From Chloroflexota bacterium (GTDB taxonomy: Bacteria; Chloroflexota; Limnocylindria; Limnocylindrales; CSP1-4), in contig JADGQJ010000003.1 of NCBI GenBank assembly GCA_017881885.1, positions 1 to 35,173 on the forward strand: a DNA stretch of 35,173 bases. The letters run 5' to 3'. The position numbers were made by a program, and so were the translations under genes. Positions within the stretch are counted from its first letter, which is position 1; each line of letters starts with the position of its first letter. Shown here piece by piece: positions 11,790 to 35,173 of this stretch. The notes beneath the pieces are model-generated. The model was not told the DNA's origin. It did not search any database and worked only from the letters and a program-made list of their open reading frames with translations.

Positions 11790-11883
11790 CGCCAGAACCG
11801 CTCCTCACTTGTCGTCACAGGCTTCGCCGTCGGCCCGTCCGAAGGCTTGGCGGCCGGGGGTGCGATGGCCGCTCACGTACGTA

Positions 11884-11892
11884 TGCTATCTT
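11884..11892 (+). promoter_or_regulatory. Extended -10 promoter for the PBP gene, overlapping a divergent TAGCAT -10 toward tyrS
   Basis: TG-C-TATCTT lies 10 nt before ATG 11903 with no SD. The reverse strand reads TAGCAT over the same bases. Confidence 0.45.
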
Positions 11893-11902
11893 GCGAGCCG
11901 CC

Positions 11903-16414: not shown

Positions 16415-16539
16415 GTCACCCGCCACGTTCTCGGGCGAGGTCTGTAAGTATCGACGAGGCTGCCACGAGCCTTCCCGTACGGAAGGTGGGCGGCCGACCC
16501 TGCGCGAGCCGGGCGGGCGACGAGCACCCGGGCTGCCGT

Positions 16540-17646: not shown

Positions 17647-17733
17647 CAACTCCTCCACAGGGCCGCGACGCGTGACGGGCGGGGCCGCCGGCGGTTGATT
17701 CTCGCATCCCCGGGCGCGGAGCGCGGGTTCAAG

Positions 17734-20190: not shown

Positions 20191-20912
20191 CGCCGCGTCC
20201 TCGGTCCCGACACAGCCGGGTTGCCTGCCGCCCAGACTCGCCACGGCATGCCGAGCCAGGGCTCCGGGGCGTAGCCGATGCCGATCCGCGGCCCATACGC
20301 TCGCTCCAGGGGCGAGTCGCCCGGAGCAGCAAGTTCCAGATGCAGCGGGGACGCCGGGTCGCACAGATCCGCGCCGCCATCCTCACGTCCTATCGAGAAG
20401 GCGGCACACACAAGGCCGGGTCCGGAGGCCAGACGCGCGGCCGGCAATGCGGCCACTCTCTGGCGGGCGGTATCTGCGCGCGCGGCATCCTCCACCGAGG
20501 CGTTCCGGCGGTCGGCCCGGCCGCGGGCGCGCCCGGCAGCTCGCTCCTCGCGGGCGTGGCGCATCAGGTCCACTCCCTCGAGAGGCTCGATCGACCGCAC
20601 GAGCAGGGCCGCGGCACGTCCGCTGGGTTCAATCACAACGTTCAAGCAGTCGTACATCCCATAGACAAGGTACACGTAGGCGTGGCCGGGCGGGCCGAAC
20701 ATGACGGCGTTGCGGCTCGTCCTGCCGAAGCGCGCGTGGGAGGCCATGTCGTCCGGACCTGCGTACGCTTCGAGTTCCACGATCCTGCCAACTCTTACGC
20801 CCGAAGCGTCGTTTCGGACCAGTCGGGCGCCGAGAAGCGCGGTTGCAGCCGCCAGGCCATATCGGGCCAGCAGGTCGCGAGGGTAGGCGTTCTGGAACGA
20901 GGCGGGCGTCAC
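20187..20912 (-). CDS. mpg: DNA-3-methyladenine glycosylase (MPG/AAG family)
   Basis: GRIVELEAY.G..D.ASH, MFGPPGHAYVYLVYGMY.CLNVV, A.L.RSIEP, L.SGPG..C.A, PRIGI, PWR. Start approximate (GTG 20912). Confidence 0.93.
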   Translation of the reverse strand: MTPASFQNAYPRDLLARYGLAAATALLGARLVRNDASGVRVGRIVELEAYAGPDDMASHARFGRTSRNAVMFGPPGHAYVYLVYGMYDCLNVVIEPSGRAAALLVRSIEPLEGVDLMRHAREERAAGRARGRADRRNASVEDAARADTARQRVAALPAARLASGPGLVCAAFSIGREDGGADLCDPASPLHLELAAPGDSPLERAYGPRIGIGYAPEPWLGMPWRVWAAGNPAVSGPRTRR

Positions 20913-20929
20913 GAAGCCGAACGGATGGC

Positions 20930-21499
20930 TCAGGGGAAGAGCGCGACCAGATCGCTCGGCAGCAGCCACGCGAGCAGATGCATAACCACCGGCACCACGG
21001 TGTCAAGGATCGCGGCTCCGATGTGTGATTGGGTAATCAGCAGGTCGTGGACCCATCGCAGCTGGCCGATTTCATCCGGAAATGGAGCCGGCATCGTATA
21101 GGAGCCGAGGATGGCGACCGCGATCGTGAGGACGACGAGCGCTTCGAGCAAGCCCAACAGGCCGCCGACGATGTCGTCGAGGATCGGGTGAGCCGCCGAA
21201 AGCTCGGTGTGCTTGTAGAAACCCTGGATCAGGATCGAAAAGCCGACCGTGAGGACGACGAAGAGCAGCCCGAAGGCAATCAGGTGGTTATAGCCGGACG
21301 GGTACTGCTGCCAGTGGTCTGCGAGGTAGTCGCCGACGGGATTTCTCAGGTTGGCTGAAACGAGAAATGCGAACACGATCGACACGATCCCGAGGATCCG
21401 CCGGATGGCGCCCTGCATGACGCCGACGATGAACGCCCCAAGCAGGACGATCAGGATCGCCAGATCGACCAGTGGCGCTGACTGGATTGCTCCGATCAT
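20930..21499 (-). CDS. cvpA: CvpA family membrane protein
   Basis: D..I...L......G...G pattern, LDDIVGGLLGLL motif, 4 TM helices; GAGGGAG RBS before ATG 21499; typical context before mutS2. Confidence 0.85.
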   Translation of the reverse strand: MIGAIQSAPLVDLAILIVLLGAFIVGVMQGAIRRILGIVSIVFAFLVSANLRNPVGDYLADHWQQYPSGYNHLIAFGLLFVVLTVGFSILIQGFYKHTELSAAHPILDDIVGGLLGLLEALVVLTIAVAILGSYTMPAPFPDEIGQLRWVHDLLITQSHIGAAILDTVVPVVMHLLAWLLPSDLVALFP

Positions 21500-21583
21500 C
21501 GGTCTCCCTCGCATCGTCGAGGCGGACAAAGCCTCCCGGCCGCGAACTCGGCCACGTTGGCCGCCTCCGAACCGCCGTGGTCC

Positions 21584-21592
21584 ACCTTAGCA
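21584..21592 (-). promoter_or_regulatory. Extended -10 promoter candidate for cvpA-mpg-mutS2
   Basis: Minus strand TG-C-TAAGGT about 85 nt upstream of the cvpA start. Confidence 0.4.
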
Positions 21593-21686
21593 GCGCTCAG
21601 GTCGCGGGTCCAACAGGCAACGGTACCGGCCTGCATGCGAACCCGGACCGCGCCCGCCAATTCGGCCGGCCCCGCGGGCGGCCAAG

Positions 21687-24188
21687 CTAGCTGCGGATAT
21701 GTGCGCCCAAGTCGGTTTCGAGGCCCTTGCGGACCGCTTCCATTGCCGCGTCCGCTTCGCCTTCGGTCAGGGTCCGGTCCTTCGACCCGAGCACAAGCCG
21801 GTAGGCCAGACTCTTCTCGGTGGCCGCAAGTGGCATTCCGCGATATCGATCAAACAGGCGGACGTGGCGCAGCAGCCTGCCGCCGTGACTGCGGATCGTG
21901 GCCTCAACTTCTGCGGCCGTCCGCGATTCGGCGACGATCACGGCCAGGTCGCGCTCGACTTCGGGAAACCGCGGAATCGGCTCGACGTGCACGCGCAGCG
22001 GCGTTGCAGCGTCCAACCCGGCGACGGCGAGCTCGGCCACGATCACCCGCTGCGCGCGAAGATCCCACGCCGCCAGCGCTTCGGGGTGTAGCTCCGCCAG
22101 GCGCCCAGCGACTGCCTCGTTCTCCGACTCCTGCCGGGCGACGAGTGCACGGCCGGGATGGAACGGGAAGCCACGAGCATCGGGAACGTATGACGGCTCG
22201 GCGAGGCCCAGACGACGGCACAGCAACTCGACGATACCCTTCGCGTCGTCGAGGTCGTACGAGCGGGCAACGCGGTTCCAGGCCGCGGGCTCGGCCGCGC
22301 CGGTCAGCAGGAACGCGAGACGGGTCCATTCGCGCGGCTTGCCGTCTATACGGGCGTAGTGCTTGCCGATCTCGAAGATCGCGACGTCGGGGCGGCCCTG
22401 GCGCTCGTTCAGCGAGAGAACGTCGAGCAGGCTGGCCGCCAGATGCCGTCTCAGGACCGAATGCTGAGCGGAGAGCGGGTTCGTGACCGCGATCTCTTCA
22501 CCCGACTGGGCTGCCAGGCCCCCAGGCAGAGCCGGTGCGGTGGCATCGTCGGGCCATTGCAGCTTAGCCTCGTCCGGCGCCGCAACGAGAGCGTGGGTGA
22601 CGACTTCGCTCAATCCGGCACCGGCGAGGGTCTCGCGAATGAGGTCCCGGACCCGCAGAGGTGACGGCCGATAAGCCGGCATGAGCGTGTCCGGAAGGTG
22701 CGCTGGCGTGGTCTCGTAGCCGCGGACGCGGGCGACCTCCTCCGCGACGTCGGCCTCGATCGCCATGTCGCGCCGCCATGTCGGGACCACGGCGATGAGG
22801 ATCTCTTCGGACCCAGGATTGACCACGAGCGGCTTCGGTTCGACGGCCACCTGGATCCGCGTCCCCGACGGTGCCGATTCGGTCTCGACCCCGACCCGCA
22901 GCAGAAGCGCCCGCTGCTCTTCGCCCGAAATCTCGGCGCCGAGAAGTCTGCTGACGCGGGCCGGTCGGAACGCCAGCCTGGCAGATGCCGGTTCCGTCGG
23001 TGCCGTGTCGACGCGTCCCTTGGAGGCCGAGCCGCCGGCCCACGCCAGGGTCAGCTGGGCGACCCGATCCGCGCCGATTCGTGCGAGCCTGAATTCCTGG
23101 CCCTTTTCGAAGCGAAGACTCGCCTCGGAGCGCAAGGCGTACCGATGGCCCGTTCGACGGATGCTCACCGGGTCAAAGACGGCCGACTCGATCGCGATCT
23201 CGGTGGTCGCGTCGGTGATCTCGCTCTCGGCTCCGCCCATGACGCCGGCAATGCCGATTGGGCCGGAGGGATCGGCGATGATCAGCGTATCCGGCGTCAG
23301 TTCGCGATCGACGTGATCGAGCGTCTCGAGCCGCTCCCCGGGCAGGGCGCGTCGGACGATGATGGTCCCCTCGCGGACCGCGGCGCCGTTGAAGGTGTGC
23401 GTCGGCTTGCCGAGTTCGAGCATCACGAAGTTGGATGCGTCGACGACATTGCTGACCGGCCGCATCCCTGCGGCCTGGAGCCGCATCTGGATCCAATCCG
23501 GGGAGGGCGCGATCTTGACGCCGCTGATCCACCGGCCCACGAACCTGGTGCACAGTTCCGGCTCTCGAACCTCGACCCTCAGGCGATCGGCAACAGGCCC
23601 GCCCGTCTCCTCGACGGCGATCTCGGGCCAGCGGACCGGGGCGCCGGTCGCGGCCGACACCTCGCGGGCCAGGCCCACCAGGCACAGGACGTCGCCACGG
23701 TTCGGTTTGACGTCCACGTCCAGGACGACGTCGCCGTAGAGGTCCGAGAGTTCGATGCCCAGCTGTGTCGAAGGCGGCAGGATCAGGATCCCCTCGGCGT
23801 CGCTCGTGATGTGCAGCTCGTCGCCGGAACAGAGCATTCCCTCGGAAGCTATGCCCATCTTCTCGGTCCGCTCGATGCGGCGGTCGCCGGGCAGAACGGC
23901 GCCCGGCAGAGCGACCGGCACCCGCTGGCCCGGGGCGATGTTGTTGGCCCCGCAGACGATGTGCAGCGGCTCGCCCGAGCCCACGTTGACGGTGGTCAGG
24001 TGGAGTCGGTCGGCGTGAGGATGCTTCTCGACGGTGAGGAGCTCGCCAACTACTACCGAGCGCCAATCGGCACCCCACTGCTCGACACCCTTGACTTCCA
24101 TGCCGAGGAGCGTCAGCCGCTCTGCGAGTTGCTCGGGCGACATCTGGACATCGACGTACTCACGAAGCCAGCTGAGCGGGACTCTCAT
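21687..24188 (-). CDS. pheT: Phenylalanine--tRNA ligase beta subunit
   Basis: MRVPLSWLREYV, HPHADRL, IVCGA.N, SEGMLCS, PNRGD.L, RFEKG, PTWRRD, EEVARV.GY, C-terminal FDX-ACB domain (RFP.VERDLA, KSLAYRL). Confidence 0.97.
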   Translation of the reverse strand: MRVPLSWLREYVDVQMSPEQLAERLTLLGMEVKGVEQWGADWRSVVVGELLTVEKHPHADRLHLTTVNVGSGEPLHIVCGANNIAPGQRVPVALPGAVLPGDRRIERTEKMGIASEGMLCSGDELHITSDAEGILILPPSTQLGIELSDLYGDVVLDVDVKPNRGDVLCLVGLAREVSAATGAPVRWPEIAVEETGGPVADRLRVEVREPELCTRFVGRWISGVKIAPSPDWIQMRLQAAGMRPVSNVVDASNFVMLELGKPTHTFNGAAVREGTIIVRRALPGERLETLDHVDRELTPDTLIIADPSGPIGIAGVMGGAESEITDATTEIAIESAVFDPVSIRRTGHRYALRSEASLRFEKGQEFRLARIGADRVAQLTLAWAGGSASKGRVDTAPTEPASARLAFRPARVSRLLGAEISGEEQRALLLRVGVETESAPSGTRIQVAVEPKPLVVNPGSEEILIAVVPTWRRDMAIEADVAEEVARVRGYETTPAHLPDTLMPAYRPSPLRVRDLIRETLAGAGLSEVVTHALVAAPDEAKLQWPDDATAPALPGGLAAQSGEEIAVTNPLSAQHSVLRRHLAASLLDVLSLNERQGRPDVAIFEIGKHYARIDGKPREWTRLAFLLTGAAEPAAWNRVARSYDLDDAKGIVELLCRRLGLAEPSYVPDARGFPFHPGRALVARQESENEAVAGRLAELHPEALAAWDLRAQRVIVAELAVAGLDAATPLRVHVEPIPRFPEVERDLAVIVAESRTAAEVEATIRSHGGRLLRHVRLFDRYRGMPLAATEKSLAYRLVLGSKDRTLTEGEADAAMEAVRKGLETDLGAHIRS

Positions 24189-25228
24189 CGGAACTGCTCC
24201 AGGAAGCGCAGATCGTTCTCGAGGTAGTAGCGGAGATCCGGCACGGCATGGCGCAGGTTGGAGATTCGCTCGACGCCCATGCCGAACGCGAAGCCCTGAT
24301 ACCGCTCGGGGTCGATGCCGCCGTATTGGAGGACGACGGGATGGACCATTCCGGCGCCCAGGATCGTCATCCAGCCGGTCTTCGAGCAGGCCGGGCAGCC
24401 CACGCCGCCACAGACTACGCACTCGACGTCGAACGCCACCGATGGCTCGGTGAAGGGGTAGTAACCCGGCCGGAAGCGCGTCTTGCGCGGCCCGAAGAGA
24501 GCATGGGCGAACTCGTCGAGCAGACCCTTCAGGTCCGCCATCGAAGTCCCCTCGTCCACCATCAGGCCTTCGACCTGGAAGAACTCGAAGCCGTGGCTGG
24601 CATCCACCGCCTCATACCGGAAGCAGCGTCCCGGAAGGAGCGCTCGGATCGGCGGCTTGGTCGACTGCATGACGCGGATCTGGCCCGGGCTGGTGTGGGT
24701 CCGCAACAGGTGGCCCGGAATGTCGACGTACAGCGTGTCCCATAGGTCGCGCGCCGGGTGATCGGGAGCGATGTTGAGCATCTGGAAGTTAGTCAGATCG
24801 TCCTCGACCTCGGGCCCTTCGTAGACCACGAAGCCGAATTGTCCGAAGACCTCGGCGATGGCGGCGATCGTCTCGGGGATCGGGTGAAGCGTGCCGCGGG
24901 GAACGGTGCGACCAGGAAGGGTCACATCCACGCTCTCGGCCGCCAGTCGCTGAGCCTGAACCACGGAGCGGAGTTCGAGGCCACGTTCGGACAGCGCCGT
25001 CTTGACGGCCTCTCCGATCTCGTTCGCGACGGCCCCGACGCGCGGCCGATCTTCCGCCGGCAACGCGCCGATGCCCCGCAGCACAGCCGTCAGATCGCCC
25101 TTCTTGCCGAGGTACTGGATCTGCAGCTGGTCGAGTGCCGCGGGATCCGCCGCTTTGGCGATCTCGGCCAGGGCCAGATCCTTGAGGCGATGCAGATCGC
25201 CGCTCAGGCTCTCGAAGTCCACGCTCAC
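24185..25228 (-). CDS. pheS: Phenylalanine--tRNA ligase alpha subunit
   Basis: YLGKKG, NF..LN...DHPAR...DT, LLRTHTSP.Q.R, F.QVEGL, RFRP.YYPFTEPS, CxxC..GCxxC, GAGMVHP, GFAFGMG.ER. GAGGA RBS; start GTG 25228 or 25222. Confidence 0.97.
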   Translation of the reverse strand: MSVDFESLSGDLHRLKDLALAEIAKAADPAALDQLQIQYLGKKGDLTAVLRGIGALPAEDRPRVGAVANEIGEAVKTALSERGLELRSVVQAQRLAAESVDVTLPGRTVPRGTLHPIPETIAAIAEVFGQFGFVVYEGPEVEDDLTNFQMLNIAPDHPARDLWDTLYVDIPGHLLRTHTSPGQIRVMQSTKPPIRALLPGRCFRYEAVDASHGFEFFQVEGLMVDEGTSMADLKGLLDEFAHALFGPRKTRFRPGYYPFTEPSVAFDVECVVCGGVGCPACSKTGWMTILGAGMVHPVVLQYGGIDPERYQGFAFGMGVERISNLRHAVPDLRYYLENDLRFLEQFR

Positions 25229-25285
25229 GTTTCCTCGTCCTCTCGCCGAGCCGAGCGGCTCGGCGTCCTCCAAGTGTTGCACCAG

Positions 25286-25592
25286 GAATCTAGAACCCTC
25301 GACCGTCCGCGTCCCGTTCGGACACGGGGACGAGTCGAGGGCTCGCGGTACCACCCCGCTTCCCGGGCGGCAGACGGGCCGTCAGGGCGCTCTTGTGGGG
25401 CCCGATATCGGGGGCCGATCGGTTCGCCTACTTGCCGGGACGCCTGGACGTCGAGGGTTCTGCGAACGGCTCCGGAGCGAACCGGCGAGATCGATCCGAG
25501 ATGGGCTTCCAGTCGCCGACCCGTCCTCCCTGGTGGATCTCGAGTCAGAGCGCAAAGGCCCTGGCACTCGCCTCTTCTCCGTCGTCGCCTTG
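25286..25592 (-). promoter_or_regulatory. T-box riboswitch, Phe-specific (UUC specifier)
   Basis: T-box AAGCGGGGUGGUACCGCG (25361-25344). Antiterminator GGGG/CCCC plus GCGAG/CUCGU. Terminator CCCUCGAC/GUCGAGGG. Stem I with AG box CAGGGAG, GACUGG loop, and specifier UUC at 25481-25479. Confidence 0.9.
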
Positions 25593-25630
25593 CTCTATTT
25601 CGGACCCGACCGTCTCCGGCCGGCGGAGAC

Positions 25631-25987
25631 TCAGGCCGACGCTTTTCCGGCGACAGCCACGATCTGTGCAAATGCGGGAGCGTCGCGAACGGCAAGATCG
25701 GCCAGGATCTTGCGATCGAGATCGATATTCGCGGCCTTGAGGCCGGCGATCAGCTTGCCGTAGGTCATGCCGTTGAGGCGAGCCGCCGCGTTGATCCGAA
25801 TGACCCACAGCTGACGCATCTGACGCTTGCGCTGCTTGCGATCCCGGGTCGCGTAGGCCAGCGCGTGGAGCATCGACTCATGGGCACGCTTGACGAGCTT
25901 GGAGTTCGTGCCGGAACGGCCCTCGGCATCCTTGAGGAGGCGCTTGTGTCGGTGGTGGGCGGTTACGCCCCGCTTTACGCGTGACAT
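25631..25987 (-). CDS. rplT: 50S ribosomal protein bL20
   Basis: [41 protein letters not shown]. Confidence 0.98.
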
Positions 25988-25993
25988 CTAAGC

Positions 25994-26197
25994 TCAGGCT
26001 CCCAGGTACGGCAGCAGCCGGCGGATCTGATCAAGGGACTCGGGGCTCACGAGCGCTTTGCCGTCGTATCGGCGGGCACGTCGTGAGGACTTCAGCTCGA
26101 GGTGGTGTCCGCGCCACGACTTGACACGGTACGCCTTGCCACCGCCGGTGACCCCGATCCGTTTCTGGGTCCCCTTGTGGCTCTTCATCTTGGGCAC
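25994..26197 (-). CDS. rpmI: 50S ribosomal protein bL35
   Basis: MPKMKSHKG..KR..VTG.GK, H.LE.KS, LLPY; located between infC and rplT; GTG start. Confidence 0.96.
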   Translation of the reverse strand: MPKMKSHKGTQKRIGVTGGGKAYRVKSWRGHHLELKSSRRARRYDGKALVSPESLDQIRRLLPYLGA

Positions 26198-26198
26198 G

Positions 26199-26912
26199 TC
26201 AGTTCACCTTCCCAGTTGACGCCGCGCCGGATTCCGGCTCGGGTCCGGGAGCCGCCGGACTGGCCGGGGTCTCCACTTTTGCTATTGCCACTGCGGCGTC
26301 ATTCGCTGTTGCCTCTACGGCGTCGAGTACCGGCGCCGCTTCTTCGTCTGTTCTGGCATGGCCCTTGGCTGCCGCCGCCGGTGTCGGCTCGTGCGTCTTG
26401 GGCTTGTGGACCGATGCAACGCTGATGTGCATCGACTTACCTTCGAGCAGCGGGAGCCGCTCAACCACGCCGTGTTCTTTGATCTGCTCCGCGAACTTGT
26501 CCAGCAGATCGCGACCGATCTGAGGATGGGTGAGCTCCCGTCCGCGGAACTGAACCGAAACCTTGACCCTGTCGCCTTCTTCCAGGAACTCGACCGCCCG
26601 TCGGACCTTTGTATCGAAGTCGCCGATCCCGATCTTGGGCTTGAGGCGGACTTCCTTGAAAGTGACGGAACGTTGCCGCCGCTTGGCTTCCTTTTCGCGC
26701 TTGGTCAGTTCGTACTTGTACTGACCGAAATCGAGGAGTCGCGCCACGGGAGGACTGGCCAGCGGTGCGACCTCCACCAGATCGAGCCCCCGCTCCTGCG
26801 CAAGCCTCAAGGCGTCTGCCGTTCGCATGACGCCAAGCTGGCTGCCGTCTTCGTCGACGAGCCGCACGTCGAACACGCGGATCATCTGATTTATGCGCAG
26901 GTCTCGGCTGAT
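26199..26912 (-). CDS. infC: Translation initiation factor IF-3, non-canonical ATC start, with C-terminal extension
   Basis: AAGAAGGGG RBS, then ATC AGC CGA GAC CTG CGC ATA AAT CAG ATG (ISRDLRINQMIR). Motifs LDLVEVAP.A.PPV, D.G.YKYE, KEVRLKPKI, FRGRE. Confidence 0.95.
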   Translation of the reverse strand: MSRDLRINQMIRVFDVRLVDEDGSQLGVMRTADALRLAQERGLDLVEVAPLASPPVARLLDFGQYKYELTKREKEAKRRQRSVTFKEVRLKPKIGIGDFDTKVRRAVEFLEEGDRVKVSVQFRGRELTHPQIGRDLLDKFAEQIKEHGVVERLPLLEGKSMHISVASVHKPKTHEPTPAAAAKGHARTDEEAAPVLDAVEATANDAAVAIAKVETPASPAAPGPEPESGAASTGKVN

Positions 26913-27021
26913 GGCGAACCCCTTCTTTACAGGTTCCGGTTACCGGCCGGCGGCGACTCCGTCCGGAGGCAGATGAGCGCGCCGACCCCGGGCACGGCTG
27001 CGCCGGGCGGTCGCCCGCGGG

Positions 27022-27051
27022 ACTATATCACAGGGATTCCGCGAGCGGCAA
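27022..27051 (-). promoter_or_regulatory. Sigma-70-type promoter of infC-rpmI-rplT-pheST
   Basis: TTGCCG (27051-27046), 18-nt spacer, TATAGT (27027-27022) with extended TG. Confidence 0.6.
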
Positions 27052-27148
27052 ACGCGCGACCGACACGTTTCGCCGTCCTTTGGCGTCGATAAGCGAGCGG
27101 TGTGTGATGATGCTCACCGCATTGTCGAATCAAATCCGAGGAGTGGTT

Positions 27149-27727
27149 ATGGGGCGGTCGATTCTGGGGTCCGTGCTCGCTGTCTTTCTGCTGGTTTCTG
27201 CTGCAGCCGCATGCCAGGGCACTGCCCCAACCCCGTCTCCGAGTCCCACCCCGACGCCAACTCCGACTGCTACTCCTTCGCCAACCCCGACCCCGACTGC
27301 GACCCCTTCCCCCTCGCCCACGATCGACCCAAAGGCAACTCCCACTCCCCTACCGACCGGAGCACCGGGGGCCTTCTTCGCCGTAAGGAAGTACGAGGAC
27401 GCGATCGTTGCCGGCGAATACGCGAAGGCATGGGGATTGCTCGGGAAAGTCACGCAGGCGAAGTGGGGCAATCTCGCCGCCTTCCAGAAGGACCGGGCCG
27501 CCTTCGTGGCGACCGCAGGCGTCGACTATCGGGAGGAGTTGAGCCCTCCCAACACCCTAACACTCAAGCAGTGGATCGAGGGCCTTTCCTGGGCATCCAG
27601 CATCGACCAGGCGCACGCCTACTTGGTCAGCGTCAAATGGACCTTCTTCACGAGCGACACCGCAGGCTGGGAGATCTGGGTCGCCAACCCCGGGAAGACC
27701 GGTTGGCTCCTCTATCAGGCTCGCTAG
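27149..27727 (+). CDS. Hypothetical lipoprotein with Pro/Thr/Ser linker
   Basis: GAGGAG RBS; signal peptide ending AAAAC; PT repeat linker; C-terminal domain with Y..A...G.Y..AW.LL pattern. Confidence 0.8.
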   Translation: MGRSILGSVLAVFLLVSAAAACQGTAPTPSPSPTPTPTPTATPSPTPTPTATPSPSPTIDPKATPTPLPTGAPGAFFAVRKYEDAIVAGEYAKAWGLLGKVTQAKWGNLAAFQKDRAAFVATAGVDYREELSPPNTLTLKQWIEGLSWASSIDQAHAYLVSVKWTFFTSDTAGWEIWVANPGKTGWLLYQAR

Positions 27728-27745
27728 CCTTTCTCCGACAGACGG

Positions 27746-29608
27746 CTAGGGCTTGCGCGCGCCGGTCTCTTCGGCCAGGCGATCGATGAAGGCGTCCCAG
27801 GTGACACCGTTCTCCTGCTCGCCGGCCCGGTTTCGAATCGAGACCGTTCGAGCCTCCACCTCCCGGTCGCCCATGACGAGCATGTAGGGCACCTTCTGCT
27901 CCTGGGCCAGGCGAATCTTGTTCTGCATCCGGCTGTCGGAGTCGTCCACCTCCACGCGGAGCTTCCGTGCGCTCAACAGGGCCCCCAATTCGCGAGCCGG
28001 TCCGCCGTGCCGATCGGCAATGGGGATTACGACGGCTTGAACCGGCGCGCACCAGACCGGGAAGGCTCCGGCGAAGTGCTCTACCAGCACGCCGATGAAT
28101 CGCTCGAGCGACCCGTAGATTGCGCGATGGATCGTCATCGGCCGGACGGCCTGTCCGTTCTCATCGATGTACGTACAGTCGAAACGTTCCGGCAGCATGA
28201 CCAGATCGACCTGGATCGTGGCTGTTTGCCACTCACGCCCAAGCGCGTCCTCGATCTGAATGTCGATCTTGGGTGCGTAGAATGCGCCGTCCTTGGGCTT
28301 GAGCCGGTACGGCTTGCCGAACGACTCGAGCGCTGCCGTGATCTGGGCCTCCGCCGTCTCCCACAGCGCAGGATCGCCCAGCGCCTTGTCGGGCCTCGTG
28401 CCGAAGGTGAAGCGCGGCTCCAAACCGAACCAGCCGTAGACCTCGTAGACCTCACCCAGCAACGCCCTTATCTCTTCCTGGAGCTGGTCGGGGCGGAGGT
28501 AGATGTGGGCGTCGTCCTGGACGAAATGGCGGACGCGGGTCAAGCCGGAAAGGGTCCCAGAGCGCTCGTTGCGGTGCAGTCGGCCGAACTCGGACAAACG
28601 CAGCGGCAGGTCGCGATATGAGCGCAACTTGCTCTTGTAGATGAAGGTGCTCTCGGGACAGTTCATCGGCTTGAGGCTAAAGGTCTGGCCTTCGGACTCG
28701 AGGACGAACATGCTGTCTTTGTAGTTGGCCCAGTGGCCCGACTGCTCCCACAGCTTCTTGTGGACGAGCATCGGGGTGCTCACCTCCTGGTACCCGCGGC
28801 GATCCTGGACTTCCCGGATTGCGGTCTCGAGGGTTCGCCACAGCCGCTGGCCCTTCGGGTGCCAGAAGGCCGAGCCTGGGGACACGTCATGGAAGCTGAA
28901 TAGGTCGAGCTGGACGCCGAGGCGGCGATGGTCGCGGCGCTTGGCCTCTTCGCGCCGCAGCAGGTAGGCGTCGAGCTCGGCTTGAGTCGACCAAACGGTG
29001 CCGTAGATGCGTTGCAGCATCGGGCGCTTCTCGGAGCCCCGCCAGTACGCGCCGGCCACGGTCATCAGCTTGAACGGCCCGATCTTGCCCGTGCTCGCCA
29101 CGTGCGGGCCTTTGCACAGGTCGGTGAACGCACCGTGTGAATACGTGGAGGTCGGCGGCAGCGGCTCGCCGGTCTCTTTAGCTCGAGCAGCAAGGTCGTC
29201 GAGGATCTCGACCTTGAACGGCTGGTTGACACTCTCGAAGTAGGCTCGGCCTTCGGCGAAGGGAAACTCCTTGCGCACGAAGGCGTGGTCGGCGGCAATC
29301 GAGGTCCGCATGCCGTCCTCTATGGCGGCGAGGTCGTCTGGCGTGAGCGGCCGCGGCAGCAGAAAGTCGTAGTAGAAGCCGTCCTCGATCGACGGCCCGA
29401 TGCCGAGCTGGGCGTCGGGGAAGATCCCCTGCACAGATTCGGCCATCACATGGGCGGCCGAATGGCGCATGGCATCGATGTCGGAGTGTGCGCCGGCGTC
29501 GAGGAGTTCCTCCACCGAGCCCCGCTCGACTGTATCGAAGAACTCCTCCGGCTCCGCCGACGCCGGTCCGACTGCCTTTGCTGCCTCGCTCTGTACTTCG
29601 TTAGCCAT
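27746..29608 (-). CDS. thrS: Threonine--tRNA ligase (appears to lack the N-terminal TGS domain)
   Basis: RHSAAH, IGP.IEDGFYYDF, DLCKGPH, GAYWRG, RDHR.LG, LKPMNCP, GLTRVR.F.QDDAH, GAFYAPKID, HRAIYGS.ERF. Confidence 0.98.
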   Translation of the reverse strand: MANEVQSEAAKAVGPASAEPEEFFDTVERGSVEELLDAGAHSDIDAMRHSAAHVMAESVQGIFPDAQLGIGPSIEDGFYYDFLLPRPLTPDDLAAIEDGMRTSIAADHAFVRKEFPFAEGRAYFESVNQPFKVEILDDLAARAKETGEPLPPTSTYSHGAFTDLCKGPHVASTGKIGPFKLMTVAGAYWRGSEKRPMLQRIYGTVWSTQAELDAYLLRREEAKRRDHRRLGVQLDLFSFHDVSPGSAFWHPKGQRLWRTLETAIREVQDRRGYQEVSTPMLVHKKLWEQSGHWANYKDSMFVLESEGQTFSLKPMNCPESTFIYKSKLRSYRDLPLRLSEFGRLHRNERSGTLSGLTRVRHFVQDDAHIYLRPDQLQEEIRALLGEVYEVYGWFGLEPRFTFGTRPDKALGDPALWETAEAQITAALESFGKPYRLKPKDGAFYAPKIDIQIEDALGREWQTATIQVDLVMLPERFDCTYIDENGQAVRPMTIHRAIYGSLERFIGVLVEHFAGAFPVWCAPVQAVVIPIADRHGGPARELGALLSARKLRVEVDDSDSRMQNKIRLAQEQKVPYMLVMGDREVEARTVSIRNRAGEQENGVTWDAFIDRLAEETGARKP

Positions 29609-30096: not shown

Positions 30097-31662
30097 CTAT
30101 CCGCGGTAGCGCCAGACTTCTCCGATAGGCAGCGTCGCGACCAGGTCGTAGTGCGACTGGATGAAGGATTGCAGTGGCGCGAGGGCCGCGTAGTAGGTCC
30201 GCAGCGGGTTCGTCATAGCCGCCGACTGATTGAGTGGATAGAGCCCGATGAGGTCCGGATTCGTCGCGCGGCTTGCCACAACCAGACGGGGCGGATGCGC
30301 CGTCCACTGATCCAGCATCGTTGCTACCGCCTTCTGGTCATAGCCGGGCATGATGAGCGGATGGATCTGGAGGTATGGACCGGCCGGCTGACGATCGGAT
30401 CGCAGGTAGAGGTCCGGGTCGGTTCCCCAGACGTAGATCGTGTCACCCGGTGCGGAGTTGGCACGTATGTACGCCGCAAGGTTGGCGTTCGCGGCGAGTT
30501 GCGGGTCGTTCGAAGGGGTGGGGAGCGATTGCCACAGGAGTCCGGCTGCAACCGAGGCGCACAGAGCGACGGTGAGGACCGCTCGGCTGATCCGCGGACG
30601 TTCGACCCAGAGGGTGCAAAGCGTGAAGCCAAACAGCACGATGAGCGGCGGCACGATCAACAACAGATAGCGGGCATAGAACCGCTGACCGAACCCGAGT
30701 AGCGCCAGCTCGGCCACGAGCCAGACCAACATCGCCCGGGCGAAGTTCGACCGCAGGACGTTCAGTCCAAGCAGATAGCCGCGAGCAGTCGGGGTCAGGC
30801 AAATGATGAGCGTCGGGAACCAAAGAGGCCAAACGTCGAGGATCCCGCGGACCCAGGCCCGGGGCTGGAGGTGGCCCGCGGCCCGATACAGGCTCTGGTA
30901 GTGAACGAAAGCATCGATGGCGGCCGGCACGGCCCCACCGGCGAGCACCGTCCACCAGACCACCAGGGAGACCATGGCCGCGGCGGCGATAGCAGCGCCA
31001 AGGCGTCCGTCCAGAACCCGCCGACGGAGCCACGTTCGCATGTTGGATCGCGTCGGTGGATACAAAGCACCATCAATGGGGATCGACAGCCAGAGAACGG
31101 CCAGAGCCGGCACGGCCCCGGCGGTAAGGAACGATGAGCCGACCGCGAGAGCGAAGGTGGCGCCCGCGGCGGCCGGCCATATGAGGCTCCGGCGTCCGAG
31201 GACGATCCCGGCGATGATCGCGAAACAGACGGCAAGCCAGGCCACGCCGAACAGCTCCGACATTCCGCCGCCGTAGCTGAGCGCGGGCAACGAGAGACCG
31301 CCGGCGAGGGCTACGACGGTCGCGACGCCGACCCAAAACCTGGAATAGACGGTCGCAACGAGCCAGCCACCAGCCGTAGCCGCGGCAGCGATCGCCACGA
31401 CAGTCAAGGCCTGCATCGATACGGTCGTATCGCCCGGATCGAGGATCCAGGCGAGAGCGCCCACGAGGTAGATCGCCGGCGGTTTGTAGTCCCAGATGCC
31501 GAGGAACGGCGGCCGCCCCTCGAGCATCCCGCGACCGATGACGACCCAGATGCTGGCGTCGTGGGATGCCGGACGCGGCTGCGTGACGAACACGGCGGCG
31601 GCGACAGCGGCCGCAAGAAGCGTCACGAGTCCCCATCGCAACCGCGAATTCGAGATGGACAA
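30097..31662 (-). CDS. GT-C fold membrane glycosyltransferase (ArnT/PMT-like, family 39/83)
   Basis: HDA..W...GR.ML.G..P....WDYKPP.IY loop after TM1, many TM helices, C-terminal extracytoplasmic domain (D.IYVWG..P.LY..SDR). GGAGG RBS before TTG 31662. Confidence 0.8.
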   Translation of the reverse strand: MSISNSRLRWGLVTLLAAAVAAAVFVTQPRPASHDASIWVVIGRGMLEGRPPFLGIWDYKPPAIYLVGALAWILDPGDTTVSMQALTVVAIAAAATAGGWLVATVYSRFWVGVATVVALAGGLSLPALSYGGGMSELFGVAWLAVCFAIIAGIVLGRRSLIWPAAAGATFALAVGSSFLTAGAVPALAVLWLSIPIDGALYPPTRSNMRTWLRRRVLDGRLGAAIAAAAMVSLVVWWTVLAGGAVPAAIDAFVHYQSLYRAAGHLQPRAWVRGILDVWPLWFPTLIICLTPTARGYLLGLNVLRSNFARAMLVWLVAELALLGFGQRFYARYLLLIVPPLIVLFGFTLCTLWVERPRISRAVLTVALCASVAAGLLWQSLPTPSNDPQLAANANLAAYIRANSAPGDTIYVWGTDPDLYLRSDRQPAGPYLQIHPLIMPGYDQKAVATMLDQWTAHPPRLVVASRATNPDLIGLYPLNQSAAMTNPLRTYYAALAPLQSFIQSHYDLVATLPIGEVWRYRG

Positions 31663-31691
31663 GACCTTCCTCCGCCGGACAAACGGGCCCG

Positions 31692-31700
31692 ATCTTAGCA
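31692..31700 (-). promoter_or_regulatory. Extended -10 promoter for the glycosyltransferase gene
   Basis: TG-C-TAAGAT about 30 nt upstream of the TTG start. Confidence 0.5.
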
Positions 31701-31770
31701 TCCGTGTCCGCGCTTCGGGGATCGGTCACCTCAGTGCCTGCCAGAAGGGTCCCGAGTCCTCAGATCCGCC

Positions 31771-32847
31771 CTATCCAAGCCAGATCTGGCCGCCGACCTG
31801 ATCGAACGGAACCGGCGAGTTGAAGAGCGGCGCCCACTCTCCCTGTTCCCACCCGTATCCGAGCTCATGGATGTCGCCCACCGTGCCGTCTGGAGATTCG
31901 GTGCCCGACAACATGGCGACACGGGAGTTGTCGCCGCTGAGGGCAACGTCCCACACGACCTGCGACGGCTTCAGGGTAGCGACCGCGGCCGGTACCCTGC
32001 CCGCCAGCCACTCGGAAATAGGTGCCACGTACACGCCCGACTCGGTCGCCGCCACGAGTCTCTTGCGATCAGGCGACACCGCGAAGACCCGCACGCCCGT
32101 CAGCCCCTGGAGCAAGGCGACGGTGCCTTTCGCCGGGTCGATCACCGCAAGCCGAGATATCTGGCGGTTGTCCGTCGACAACGCGACCACCCTGGACTCG
32201 TCCAGCCATGCGACCGACGGCCCGAACGGTGACGCGGGCGTGGGCGTCAATGGGCTTCCGGCTCCCTTACCACTTACCACCGCGAAGTTGAGCCCATCAG
32301 CATCCGCGATGGCGATGATCGCCTTCCCCGAGTCGGAACTGTCCACGCACACAACCGTCCCAAGGGATACCTGCGCCGACCAATTCACACCGAGCGACAT
32401 GCGCCGATCCTGCGGTGTGGCGAGGTCGCGGTATTCCAGCGAGCTTCTCGTGGCGAGCGTGACCTTCATGCCGTCCCGGGCGATTGCAGTCACGCCGGGA
32501 GTCTTTGTGCCGCGTGTCCAGGTTCCATCGTCGGCGTAGGTCCACAGCCCCGCCTCCTCGTTTGAAGCGTTGCCGAGAACCAGGAGTTGCGGAATGCCGG
32601 CGCCGGGAGACACGGCGGACGGCGCGCTCGTGCCGGAAGGCACGGCACTGACCACAGCCGTGGGCACTGCTACGGCCGTGGGCACGGCTACGCCCGTCGG
32701 CACCGCTGCGGTCGTGGGTGCGCCGGAGTTGACGACCGAGGCGCAGCCGGTCACCGCGACACAAAGTGCAGCCGCGATCGGCGCGTAGGGCCGCAGGACC
32801 GCACAGGCATGGTCGTTTACGCGACCCACGAAACCCCCGAGATACAT
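31771..32847 (-). CDS. Hypothetical lipoprotein, AVPT-repeat linker and probable beta-propeller domain
   Basis: AAGGGG RBS; lipobox-like VTGC; AVPTxV repeats; beta-strand-rich body with AWLD.SR, AVSPD.KRL and ALS.D.SRVA motifs like TolB/WD40-type blades. Confidence 0.75.
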   Translation of the reverse strand: MYLGGFVGRVNDHACAVLRPYAPIAAALCVAVTGCASVVNSGAPTTAAVPTGVAVPTAVAVPTAVVSAVPSGTSAPSAVSPGAGIPQLLVLGNASNEEAGLWTYADDGTWTRGTKTPGVTAIARDGMKVTLATRSSLEYRDLATPQDRRMSLGVNWSAQVSLGTVVCVDSSDSGKAIIAIADADGLNFAVVSGKGAGSPLTPTPASPFGPSVAWLDESRVVALSTDNRQISRLAVIDPAKGTVALLQGLTGVRVFAVSPDRKRLVAATESGVYVAPISEWLAGRVPAAVATLKPSQVVWDVALSGDNSRVAMLSGTESPDGTVGDIHELGYGWEQGEWAPLFNSPVPFDQVGGQIWLG

Positions 32848-32862
32848 GCGTCCCCTTTCTGG

Positions 32863-32899
32863 GTCGGTCCGCGGGCCCAGCAGGCGGCCGCGGACCGAC
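32863..32899. other. Perfect 12-bp intercistronic stem-loop
   Basis: GTCGGTCCGCGG (32863-32874) pairs with CCGCGGACCGAC (32888-32899); no U-tract. Confidence 0.7.
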
Positions 32900-32909
32900 T
32901 ATTCCAGGA

Positions 32910-33836
32910 CTACTCCACGAAGTCGCCGCCGATGATGTTCCCGTCACCCGCGTCGACGAACAGAGTCATCAACCACATGGAGTTCGCCGCGTCGCCCGAT
33001 GGCTTGACTTCGGTGACCCAGGCCAGGCGATATGGCACAGACGTGTTGGCCGTCAGCGACGGGTCGAAAGCACCGTTAGGCTCCACCCATTCAAGGGCGA
33101 CGCCCTGGATCGCATAGCCCGAGTGGCGCCCGGAGAACCACCGATCGAGGTTGTCCGACGCGGCATGCTTCGCGTTTTCGGCGTTGATCCGCTGACCAGG
33201 TGCGGGCCCCAGATCGTGCTCGACGCGAGACACGCTCTGAATGCGCCCGTCCGGCCAGACCTGGACCCGAGTCTCGTCGCCGCGGACTCGTATGCCGGCC
33301 ACGACCCGATCCCAATGAACCGTCCAACCGCCCGTGGCCTGATCGGCGTCCGTTGCACTCGGCGTTCCGAGCGTCAGACCGGCCGTCTGTGCTGATCGCT
33401 GCGCCGCGCGGATAGCGCCCGCGCCGCTCACTTTGAGAACGCCTCGCGGAGGGCTGTCCAGCCGGATCGCCGTGCGCAAGCGCCCGCTCTTGTCGAACTG
33501 GGTTATCGACGAGACCCGGCCCTTCGAGTCCAGTTCGGTCACTTCGTCGTACTCGGCCTGCTCGAAACCGTCTCGAACGTGCTTTCCTATTCGCTTGACG
33601 CCGACCGGGAAGCCGAGTGCGTTGCCCGTCTCGCCGGCTTGAGCCAGCAGCGTTGAGCTCGTACCCGCGTCGAGAACCGTTTCCTCACGGGCGAGCTTCC
33701 CCATGGGGTCCGGATCCGACGATGGCGCCTGTCTCGGCGCCGCCGCGAGCTGTCCCGCCGTGACCAGCAGACACACTGCCAGCGCACACGTACCAGCTGC
33801 CGTCTTGATAGAGCAGCGCACTCCTAGAAGTTGCAT
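32910..33836 (-). CDS. Secreted FTP/PepSY propeptide-like (YcdB/YcdC-like) protein without a catalytic domain
   Basis: GAGGTG RBS; signal peptide; W.V.W.RVVAGI.V.GD...V.V..DGRI.SV (FTP-like); INAE.AK.AA ... LAWV.EV ... VDA.DG.IIG (PepSY-like); no HExxH motif. Confidence 0.75.
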   Translation of the reverse strand: MQLLGVRCSIKTAAGTCALAVCLLVTAGQLAAAPRQAPSSDPDPMGKLAREETVLDAGTSSTLLAQAGETGNALGFPVGVKRIGKHVRDGFEQAEYDEVTELDSKGRVSSITQFDKSGRLRTAIRLDSPPRGVLKVSGAGAIRAAQRSAQTAGLTLGTPSATDADQATGGWTVHWDRVVAGIRVRGDETRVQVWPDGRIQSVSRVEHDLGPAPGQRINAENAKHAASDNLDRWFSGRHSGYAIQGVALEWVEPNGAFDPSLTANTSVPYRLAWVTEVKPSGDAANSMWLMTLFVDAGDGNIIGGDFVE

Positions 33837-34606
33837 GTCGGGCACCTCAGGGTCGGCTGGAGCGGCGTTCCGTCGTATTGGGGATTGCCCCACCAATTGG
33901 CCTGGAACGCCTCAGTTCCAACAGCCTCGTAGCCGCCGATGCTTGCGGCGTACGTGAAGGCCTCGGACAGCCACCGGGTGTGCGGCGCCCCGCCGTTCAT
34001 GTATCCCCAGAACGCCTTTTCGAAGCGAAGGCTCGAGCTGTCCCAGGTGTGTTTGACGTAGCTGAGGTAGAACTTGAACTCGGCCGACGTCTTGGTCTTG
34101 GCAATCTGGAACGCATTCGGCATCGTGCTCGAACTCGATCCAAGCATGCACGTCGACATGATCACGATGTTGTAGATGGTGCCGGCCGTGGCGGTCTTGA
34201 TCGCGCTGGACCGGACCATGTCCTTCGACGTATTGCACTTCCCGGTACCCGGATCCTGCAGGAAGGCGGAGTCGACATTCGGCGCCCCGCTCGCCGCCCA
34301 GTAGTTGTCGCCGTGGCTGTGCACATAGACCGCGTAGTCGTAGAACACGTTGCCCAGAAACGCTGAGCGCGTGAAGCCGGCACCGAGCGCCCCGGACACG
34401 GGGCTGAACCCGAGCTTCCCGAACTGCGAGACGGTCAGGCTGTAGTGCTGTTTGGGGTACGTGTCCGTGAAGCCCAGACACGTGGCCGCGAACGCGTCGG
34501 AGTTGGACCAGACGTGCGCGTTGTAGGCAGCGGCTGCCTGCACCGAAGCTCCGAGTGTCGAGGTCGCTAAGACGATCGAAACGAGCAATGTCGACGCTCG
34601 CTTCAT
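33824..34606 (-). CDS. Secreted caspase/gingipain-fold (clan CD) putative cysteine peptidase, DUF6345-like
   Basis: GGAGGAG RBS; Sec signal (..VQAAAA); strand+HG (AVYVHSHG, His98); strand+C (IVIMSTC, Cys153); F...FW..M helix, LSEAF..A helix, terminal WWGNP. Confidence 0.72.
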   Translation of the reverse strand: MKRASTLLVSIVLATSTLGASVQAAAAYNAHVWSNSDAFAATCLGFTDTYPKQHYSLTVSQFGKLGFSPVSGALGAGFTRSAFLGNVFYDYAVYVHSHGDNYWAASGAPNVDSAFLQDPGTGKCNTSKDMVRSSAIKTATAGTIYNIVIMSTCMLGSSSSTMPNAFQIAKTKTSAEFKFYLSYVKHTWDSSSLRFEKAFWGYMNGGAPHTRWLSEAFTYAASIGGYEAVGTEAFQANWWGNPQYDGTPLQPTLRCPTCNF

Positions 34607-34844
34607 GCGATCTCCTCCCATTCCGGCGGGCGGACGATTGCCTGCGGCGGGCTGGACGTGAGACGCGGCTCCTCGACGGTAGGGCTGCCTCCTTCACGCG
34701 AACATGAGCGGATCCGGGGTGATGGACTGGGGCGACCTCCCTTCAGCCGAGGCGACCACGCGCGTGCGCGGCCCAACGGACCGATTCCTTGCCCGACACC
34801 GAGCCCCGGACTTGCGCCGGTGGTCACAGCGAGCGGACGCCGGG

Positions 34845-34875
34845 AATGTAGGCCCCTCCGCTTACTTACGGCTTA
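34845..34875 (-). promoter_or_regulatory. Candidate promoter of the protease operon (-10 TACATT) with an 11-bp-spaced TAAGC direct repeat upstream
   Basis: TACATT at 34850-34845; GCTTA on + at 34860-34864 and 34871-34875. Confidence 0.35.
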
Positions 34876-34947
34876 TCTGGAGATCACCGCGCGAGGTCGC
34901 GACGCGCAGCGTCGCCCGATCACGCCCGGGCGGCTCGCACGAGGCCT

Positions 34948-35173
34948 CTACTGCTCCCACTCAGTGGCGCCGGCGCCATCGTGCTCCATCTTCTCGTATG
35001 GGACCGGGCCGGCGCGCGAGATCATGTTTACGAGCGCCTGCGGGACCACGGCCAACCACAGCCCGTTGAAGAGCGAGACCCGCACAGTGCGACGGGCTCG
35101 CTCCATTGCGCCCAACGCCCGGCCGTTTGCCCCGCGCTCCCAGCGCAGAGCGTCCCAGCCCAATCCGGCGCTG
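34948..35173 (-). CDS. C-terminal fragment of a membrane protein running off the window, possibly a GT2 glycosyltransferase
   Basis: Frame is open to the window edge; hydrophobic segment then P..Y.K..H, loosely like the W.KT.H tail of membrane GT2 enzymes. Confidence 0.45.
   Translation of the reverse strand, partial: SAGLGWDALRWERGANGRALGAMERARRTVRVSLFNGLWLAVVPQALVNMISRAGPVPYEKMEHDGAGATEWEQ

Follow-up and report, generated by a model that had tools for sequence, protein, structure and literature searches.

Do three neighbouring genes that all carry export signals encode one extracellular system, and of what kind would it be? The question is raised by three co-oriented open reading frames (ORFs), named here g1, g2 and g3, which lie at 31771–34621 on the minus strand of a 35,173-nucleotide stretch of Chloroflexota DNA (contig JADGQJ010000003.1 of assembly GCA_017881885.1; this whole stretch is the window referred to below). 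The initial annotation, made from the letters alone, had read them as a split zymogen composed of a secreted caspase-fold protease, a separate propeptide of the FTP/PepSY type and a surface lipoprotein. The analysis reported here indicates that g1 and g2 probably do form a two-gene secreted zymogen, with g2 as a trans-acting PepSY chaperone-inhibitor. The fold of g1, the kind of protein represented by g2, the g1-g2 linkage and a modelled interface speak for this reading, while the lipoprotein had to be removed from the core: g3 is a lineage-specific accessory.

The g1 product and its predicted fold

The g1 ORF spans 33824–34621 (265 aa counted from its first ATG). The gene is read here from the ATG at 34606, which has the Shine-Dalgarno-like run GGGAGGAG 6 nt ahead of it; the other possible ATG (34621) lies inside this same GGGAGGAG purine run. 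The resulting coding sequence (33824–34606, minus strand, stop codon included) codes for a predicted secreted protein of 260 aa. Its amino terminus consists of MKR, a hydrophobic run and AAA, and the signal peptide covers approximately residues 1–26 (MKRASTLLVSIVLATSTLGASVQAAA, encoded at 34529–34606). In the AlphaFold2 (AF2) model residues 1–25 have a predicted local distance difference test (pLDDT) score <50, and the folded domain starts at the strand formed by residues 29–34. Note that the export signals of g1, g2 and g3 were read by eye and that the g1 cleavage site is approximate; with this qualification the three co-oriented genes with export signals were found at their minus-strand positions as annotated.

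The g1 model (pLDDT 78.9, predicted template modelling score 0.79) was compared with 48,161 PDB representatives (VIA Z scores) and searched with Foldseek. Every one of the top 30 VIA rows is a chain of the caspase-hemoglobinase fold (clan-CD type), unrelated folds appearing from about Z 7. The best row is the SAVED-CHAT chain 8tl0 (Z 14.9, 195 residues aligned, root-mean-square deviation 4.2), followed by metacaspase 4 (6w8r, 14.5), metacaspase 9 (14.4), legumain (4aw9, 13.8), GSU0716 and Yca1 (13.7 each), the CHAT domain of DdvA (13.4), OaAEP1 (13.2), PIGK (7w72_K, 13.0), MALT1 (12.6), RgpB (4ief_B, 12.2) and caspases (about 12). These matches, among which are also 8a53, 3bij, 4f6p and 3v4o, have Z 12–15 over 177–197 residues. 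In Foldseek 87 chains matched at E≤0.001, the foremost being of CHAT, orthocaspase-like, MALT1 and caspase type, and the E-values against clan-CD chains ranged from 7e-6 to 4e-4. Since rows within one Z unit are tied, the closest clan-CD family of g1 cannot be named. The caspase-like fold anticipated for g1 is nevertheless recovered in the model, which reaches Z 12–15 with CHAT, metacaspase, legumain, glycosylphosphatidylinositol (GPI) transamidase and gingipain structures.

The order of the catalytic motifs in clan CD, strand-His-Gly and then strand-Cys, is found in g1: H98-G99 follows the model strand 90–96 and C153 follows strand 147–151. The putative catalytic His98 of the H-G-D motif (context VYVHSHGD) is encoded at 34313–34315 and the putative catalytic Cys153 (context IVIMSTCMLG) at 34148–34150, both on the minus strand. 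Their 55-residue spacing, the terminal GNP (part of WWGNP, residues 238–242, W238-W-G240-N-P) and the 13-nt overlap of g1 with g2 had all been noticed in the letters and were verified on the coordinates. In 42 close relatives 31 columns are invariant, including H96, H98, G99, D100, C124 and C153, and His98 is also invariant in 31/31 aligned relatives of a wider set. The alignment of diverse relatives (A5) has 25 rows, namely 31 minus P0316, P0331, P0340, P0345, P0327 and the remote P0348; the first four of these look like frame-shifted read-through ORFs from high-GC loci. All 25 full-length relatives in A5 (28–65% identity) conserve F78, H98, D100, C124, C153, E196, W238 and G240. The expected conservation of His98 and Cys153 thus holds without exception in the close (42/42) and in the diverse (25/25) set. 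Fold and invariant residues together support in silico the assignment of g1 to the caspase-hemoglobinase (clan CD) fold with a putative His98/Cys153 dyad.

The likeness of g1 to the clan-CD families C14, CHAT, C13 (legumain/GPI8), C25 and C11 is one of predicted fold, at Z 12–15 (7–7.5 for C11). Unlike the known families, g1 matches none of their sequence models: those for C11, C13, C14, C25, C50, C80 and CHAT found 0/31 g1 relatives and 0/10 distant hits of the g1 profile. None of these ten distant matches has a Pfam family. The g1 product also differs from known clan-CD enzymes in being a minimal secreted domain of 234 residues without a cis prodomain, whereas known clan-CD zymogens rely on their own prodomains or linkers (e.g. 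the RgpB prodomain in 4ief). A further difference is the presence of the invariant C124 (with C43) and, in part of the family, of a carboxyl-terminal CxxC. C124 is encoded at 34235–34237; C43 (34478–34480) is conserved at 90% or more. The two cysteines would fit a structural disulfide in a secreted protein. The segments around them (g1 residues 43–50 and 124–127) both fall within the predicted g2 interface described below. The CxxC (RCPTCNF; C255 and C258; 33833–33844) lies in the low-confidence tail of the model and is common to many distant family members and missing in others. The acidic invariants D100 and E196, together with the lack of an invariant basic residue, argue weakly against a caspase-like Asp specificity of g1.

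One named family was considered and rejected. DUF6345 (PF19872) came up as the nearest named family of g1 in a protein atlas (score 0.95, 48% of the members of one cluster). HMMER found it in 0/31 g1 relatives and gave no match in the genome of the window at E≤10, and hhalign of A5 against eight DUF6345 domains from Chloroflexota gave a probability of 0.13%. The DUF6345 domains (L085–L094, from other Chloroflexota) sit in proteins of approximately 740 aa and have strand-AGHG and strand-ASCQT motifs of their own, 37 residues apart, that resemble the layout of a His/Cys hydrolase.

The partner g2 and its predicted complex with g1

The g2 gene (32910–33836, minus strand) codes for a protein of 308 aa read from the ATG at 33836; its full ORF extends over 32910–33896 (328 aa counted from TTG). 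Its start overlaps the end of g1 by 13 nt (33824–33836, ATGCAACTTCTAG), the g1 stop codon being at 33824–33826. The protein is predicted to be exported. A hydrophobic helix at residues 13–24 could be either a cleaved signal or an uncleaved anchor. The linker after it is modelled with low confidence and varies in length; several g2 orthologues have AxA-type sites by eye, and the g2 of the window has Pro at +1. In the AF2 model (pLDDT 83.8) the first 45 residues are disordered except for this helix, and the remainder forms three tandem helix-plus-sheet units (residues 50–125, 138–205 and 219–307) without a catalytic domain.

The best fold match of g2 is the carboxyl-terminal domain of YpeB (5boi; Z 13.6 over 214 residues, Foldseek E 3e-8), which spans g2 residues 58–308. 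EUBREC_2869 (5coz, Z 10.8) comes next. The last two units of g2 (residues 119–308) match the propeptides of the M36 peptidase fungalysin (4k90_B, Z 9.1) and of the M4 peptidase vibriolysin MCP-02 (3nqz_A, Z 8.1), and further matches are YpmB (2gu3, Z 7.3), YycI and YycH. These matches support in silico that g2 is a PepSY/FTP-propeptide-like protein free of a catalytic domain. It had been annotated as an FTP plus PepSY propeptide; this stands as regards the kind of protein, while the domain composition has to be revised to three PepSY-like units that are closest to YpeB. The 98 homologous clusters of g2 are 188–345 aa long, with no search having been aimed at longer fused g1-g2 forms. In 40/40 loci g2 is a separate ORF, not covalently amino-terminal to an M4 or M36 catalytic domain.

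The carboxyl-terminal tail of g2 (G303-G-D305-F-V-E308) is encoded at 32913–32930, and G303, G304 and D305 are invariant in 35/35 members. In 40/40 loci three further residues, no more and no fewer, separate the motif GG[DENST] (GWD in the sister family) from the stop codon, and the length of the tail stays fixed even where the rest of g2 is beyond detection by BLAST.

A complex of g1 residues 27–260 with g2 residues 46–308 was modelled. Three runs gave an interface score (ipSAE) of 0.93, 0.92 and 0.93, whereas the highest value among 3 controls was 0.00. The ipSAE mark is reached by 58/80 solved complexes and by 2/110 mismatched pairs, counts that calibrate the present case only roughly because own alignments were supplied. 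At least 93% of the contacts (about 160) are shared between the runs, and the partner pLDDT is at least 87. On the g1 side the interface includes residues 96–99 (H96, H98, G99), 124–127, 152–153 (C153) and 186–190, and on the g2 side it includes 305–308. Because 96–99 and 152–153 take part, g2 covers the His/Cys face of g1 in the model, the point that the initial annotation had suggested checking for protein 2. The contact of both segments with g2 is also the one indirect sign that His98 and Cys153 may be close together in space. The contacts of lowest error are those of g1 188–190 with g2 305–307 (0.5–0.6 Å expected error): in the prediction the g2 tail rests on g1 loop 186–190 beside the His/Cys site, running along the loop after strand 179–182. 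This loop is presumably the counterpart of the substrate-binding loop that follows the fifth strand in caspases. No solved clan-CD/PepSY complex from which the model could have been reproduced is known to us. The model is support for, not proof of, the binding of g1 to g2.

Linkage of the pair, proposed mechanism and alternatives

The g1 gene is single-copy in the genome of the window. It is present in 20/24 other genomes of the genus and in 13/16 genomes of the sister family, whose genomes are streamlined (~1.1 Mb). A class-wide draw found it in 37/91 genomes of family f1 and in 9/12 of f2; the searches of f3 (0/92 genomes), f4 (0/103) and f5 (0/2) gave no match. A motif scan of species-representative genomes yielded 52 loci, all labelled Chloroflexota or Limnocylindrales-type metagenome-assembled genomes. 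The family is small, with 83 clusters at E≤1e-3 in a profile search of 1.84 billion representatives. A search of a 90%-identity database at the same cut-off gave 157 homologous clusters for g1, 98 for g2 and 46 for g3; among the matches listed of the 157, at least 120 clusters are 57–98% identical to g1 and all of these are unnamed.

A match to the g2 profile lies immediately 3' of g1 on the same strand in 12/12 loci of the genus, 8/8 of the sister family and 20/20 of other genera. The two genes are thus adjacent in 40/40 loci across one order, at g1 identities down to about 30–38%, and the co-occurrence elsewhere that the initial annotation had anticipated is found. The distance from the g1 stop to the inferred g2 start is -13 to +31 nt in 28/32 f1 loci, the choice of the g2 start being unreliable in the remaining four and in eight f2 loci. 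A separate observation concerns P0316 (686 aa), which reads through g1-like, g2-like and lipobox segments in shifted frames. Although this protein probably stems from faulty gene calling in a high-GC relative, it displays the same three-gene order in another lineage.

The g2-g3 spacer (32848–32909, minus strand, 62 nt) carries a GC-rich hairpin without a U-tract; AAAGGGGA stands between this hairpin and the g3 ATG. The hairpin has a minimum free energy of -37.4 kcal/mol (z -4.81), and 0/200 shuffles were as stable. A long hairpin follows the g2 stop codon in 12/12 genus loci (L013–L024), with differing sequences. This conserved position points to g1-g2 as the core transcription unit, g3 being reached by read-through or having its own expression. 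The hairpin may act as a terminator lacking a U-tract, as an attenuator or as an element governing mRNA stability, and in this way set g3 apart. A scan of 31500–35173 for promoter and terminator consensus gave 0 sites of either kind. Contigs from RNA libraries of four runs, each of which holds a small share (0.18 or less) of the sampled words of the stretch, match parts of g1, g2 and g3 with 90–99% likeness; places that no contig covers are not informative. The g1/g2 junction is spanned by record 16 of X2 (33742–34699) and record 6 of X1 (33592–33877), and the g2/g3 junction by record 2 of X1 (32783–32948). Given these contigs and the homologous clusters, the three genes are not chance ORFs.

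The closest known arrangement is SleB-YpeB of Bacillus, where an enzyme gene is likewise followed in one operon by the gene of an exported partner with an amino-terminal hydrophobic segment. A 2026 study on SleB-YpeB proposes that the PepSY domains of YpeB are trans-acting chaperone-inhibitors of the co-encoded SleB, compares them with the pro-domains of M4 and M36 peptidases, and reports that separating sleB and ypeB lowers the levels of both proteins. Like YpeB, g2 has three tandem PepSY-like units predicted to embrace the catalytic domain. It differs in having no detectable sequence similarity to YpeB chains (PDB profile search), and the systems differ in their enzyme, a caspase-fold His/Cys domain in g1 and a lytic transglycosylase in SleB, as well as in their host, here a non-sporulating Chloroflexota lineage. 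The likeness of g2 to the propeptides of vibriolysin MCP-02 (M4, 3nqz) and fungalysin (M36, 4k90) lies in the fold of residues 119–308 and in a weak FTP signal in 11/35 members. Unlike these propeptides, g2 is a separate product encoded after the enzyme rather than an amino-terminal cis domain, has a third PepSY-like unit, and has as its predicted partner a cysteine enzyme of unrelated fold. In M4 and M36 peptidases the carboxyl-terminal end of the propeptide stays in the catalytic cleft after autocleavage; the tail of g2 is likewise predicted to sit close to catalytic residues, those of g1.

Free PepSY proteins were proposed to regulate peptidases around the cell by Yeats, Rawlings and Bateman in 2004 (cited in PMC5842191). 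As cited there, the proposal concerned metallopeptidases and named no specific trans pair, whereas here a linked cysteine-enzyme partner is at hand. The statement in the initial annotation that no characterised system of this kind was known overlooked SleB-YpeB and the 2004 idea. Among the papers listed, no literature linking PepSY to a clan-CD or caspase-type enzyme was found, nor any relevant work on proteases of Limnocylindria, in a search that left subscription journals and supplements outside. Parts and principle are each known already, and the novelty lies in bringing together a new clan-CD family, a trans-acting PepSY partner and a fixed carboxyl-terminal tail.

From the computed folds, invariant residues, gene linkage and interface we infer a scheme of catalysis, inhibition and release, and a role for g3. 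The g1 product would leave the cell via the Sec pathway, fold as a clan CD domain with the His98/Cys153 dyad and act as a cysteine endopeptidase. Translation of g2 from the mRNA of g1, with its start overlapping the g1 stop codon, would keep the two products at a fixed ratio. The g2 protein would be exported in parallel and may remain tethered through its amino-terminal hydrophobic segment. Its three PepSY-like units would wrap the active-site face of g1, with the fixed-length tail laid along the substrate-binding loop (g1 186–190) next to His98 and Cys153, so that g2 would aid the folding of g1 and yet keep it blocked, as FTP-PepSY propeptides do in cis for M4 and M36 metalloproteases and as YpeB is proposed to do in trans for SleB. 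Activity would appear once g2 is removed or degraded. The g3 product would be a lipid-anchored, probably propeller-shaped surface accessory that might serve as anchor, substrate or receptor.

Several results weigh against a zymogen of this type. For g1, no Pfam or NCBIfam family is found at E≤1, and PDB sequence (phmmer) and profile searches return rows at chance level only; lacking a sequence link, its clan-CD membership is a predicted fold of moderate confidence (pLDDT 78.9). For g2, the match to FTP (PF07504) is sub-threshold (15.3 bits versus a 21-bit cut-off), FTP is seen at E≤0.1 in 11/35 members (best 5.9e-4) and the Pfam PepSY family (PF03413) in 0/35. Its PDB sequence and profile searches likewise gave chance-level rows and no YpeB chain. 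In 5/40 loci the tail has E, N, S or T instead of Asp. The alignments behind the complex model were unpaired, and the model does not distinguish between g2 as inhibitor and g2 as permanent subunit. The RNA-library contigs may include DNA, and a contig over two genes is not proof of a single transcript.

A second interpretation, unlikely although to be taken seriously, is that g1 and g2 form a permanent heterodimer. There g2 would be a structural or substrate-presenting subunit of a transpeptidase or ligase that attaches or processes surface proteins such as the neighbouring lipoproteins. Legumain (13.8), OaAEP1 (13.2) and PIGK (13.0) stand within about 1–2 Z of the best g1 row, and legumain-type ligases and GPI transamidase use this same fold. 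The predicted interface is very large (about 160 contacts), lipoprotein genes flank the pair in many genera, and the pair is kept in ~1.1-Mb streamlined genomes (13/16, and 9/12 in a second draw). However, an interface over 96–99 and 152–153, with a tail on the substrate loop, suggests blocking rather than presenting; those relatives of g2 that have solved structures (M4 and M36 propeptides, YpeB) act as inhibitors or chaperones; and g3 is beside the pair in 0/8 sister-family loci. In the preferred reading the g1 product would be a protease rather than a transpeptidase, and g2 an inhibitor rather than a subunit.

The YpeB likeness can also be followed in another direction. YpeB, the best match of g2, partners a cell-wall lytic enzyme, so that g1 might be a cell-envelope amidase or hydrolase, acting for instance on peptidoglycan peptide stems, under a YpeB-like regulator. 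The retention of the pair in reduced genomes and the presence in the window of a class A penicillin-binding protein (PBP) and MurJ, about 17–20 kb off, agree with it. We regard it as quite improbable, given that the high-scoring fold matches of g1 are without exception peptidases or transamidases with protein substrates, that housekeeping genes (thrS, infC, pheST, mutS2) separate these distant envelope genes from the trio, and that the pair is bordered in the sister family by an ABC transporter and by a 487-aa ORF, phosphohexomutase-like by eye. An enzyme gene overlapped at its end by the gene of a tight-binding blocker is moreover the layout of effector and immunity proteins in bacterial competition, and one weak fold row of g1 is a type VI secretion system effector complex (9qpe, Z 7.8). 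That g1-g2 would be such a secreted pair is nevertheless very improbable indeed: it is single-copy and, in the genus, stands in a conserved housekeeping setting beside thrS; g1 is conserved (57–98% identity over at least 120 clusters), not polymorphic; no secretion-system or delivery domain and no PADLOC match is present; and both proteins have ordinary export signals.

If the zymogen reading of g1-g2 is true, g1 is a new, very small family in the clan of caspases, legumain and gingipains, and the pair is the first case found, within the literature searched, of a cysteine protease of this fold under a separate PepSY propeptide of the metalloprotease type. It would supply a concrete, testable example for the 2004 idea of free PepSY proteins regulating peptidases and would widen the chaperone-inhibitor model of SleB-YpeB, built on a cell-wall hydrolase, to include a protease whose fold is unrelated. 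Soil and wetland Chloroflexota carry the pair, and its retention in 1.1-Mb streamlined genomes indicates a probable physiological importance for a soil and freshwater lineage that is abundant and uncultured. A much bolder generalization, which we think rather unlikely to hold in full, is that PepSY/FTP modules are portable chaperone-inhibitors independent of the enzyme fold. A g2 recruited as a separate product would then gate a new minimal secreted caspase-fold family, its fixed tail serving as a product mimic. The pair and the lipid-anchored propeller proteins on its flanks would jointly make up a machine for surface-protein processing or ligation in monoderm Chloroflexota, doing the job of sortases or of GPI-transamidase-type enzymes.

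The lipoprotein g3 and the surrounding genes

The g3 gene (31771–32847, minus strand) codes for a predicted lipoprotein of 358 aa with the lipobox V32-T33-G34-C35, a linker rich in Pro, Ala and Val to about residue 85, and a possible beta-propeller body. The consensus of alignment A4 retains the lipobox GC. The enzymes Lgt (PF01790, 199.8 bits) and LspA (PF01252, 117.1 bits) are encoded in the same genome, above the Pfam cut-offs. The propeller is only a lead: a feature search of the protein atlas associates g3 with PD40/TolB-like clusters (score 0.95), weak Pfam matches among g3 members are WD40 in 4/27 and PD40 in 1/27, and the PDB profile search gave RACK1 at a chance-level E of 0.022. The description of g3 as a linker-tethered propeller lipoprotein is therefore retained for the lipobox and linker, with Lgt and LspA in the genome, and reduced to a candidate for the propeller.

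The g3 gene adjoins the pair in 12/12 genus loci. In other genera a g3-like match lies directly 3' of g2 in 8/20 loci (single-pass profile), with one weak match upstream in addition, and at several further loci other lipobox ORFs occupy its position. In the sister family g3 is next to the pair in 0/8 loci; there g2 is followed by the 487-aa ORF mentioned above, the ABC transporter also being a neighbour. An iterated g3 profile collected 20, 30, 42 and 54 hits over 4 rounds without convergence, and as it may have drifted the count is limited to the single-pass result. The lipoprotein is a lineage-specific accessory outside the conserved core, and the proposal of a three-gene system does not hold in the sister family. 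A lipobox ORF (LAAC, VAAC and similar) is also found upstream of and divergent from g1 in 14/20 other-genera loci (L063–L081). These upstream ORFs have weak similarity to g3, judged from weak single-pass E-values and the unconverged iterated profile. In other genera the g1-g2 pair thus often has lipoprotein genes on both sides.

PADLOC defence-system models gave 0 matches for the g1, g2 and g3 proteins. The trio is preceded in the window by a housekeeping block (11744–29608) coding for a class A PBP (11744–14839, plus strand) and, on the minus strand, for MurJ (14789–16771), MutS2 (17734–20364), PheT and PheS (21687–24422 and 24185–25354), IF3 (26199–26885) and ThrRS (27746–29608). ThrRS adjoins the trio in 11/12 genus loci, L013 having no thrS match within its 10-kb stretch. 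In the window an ORF for a polytopic membrane protein of 534 aa (30097–31701, minus strand) is placed between g3 and thrS. It matches no Pfam family (E≤1e-5), and tblastn found no counterpart in 20 related loci, so that it may be genome-specific; by eye it resembles a GT-C-type glycosyltransferase.

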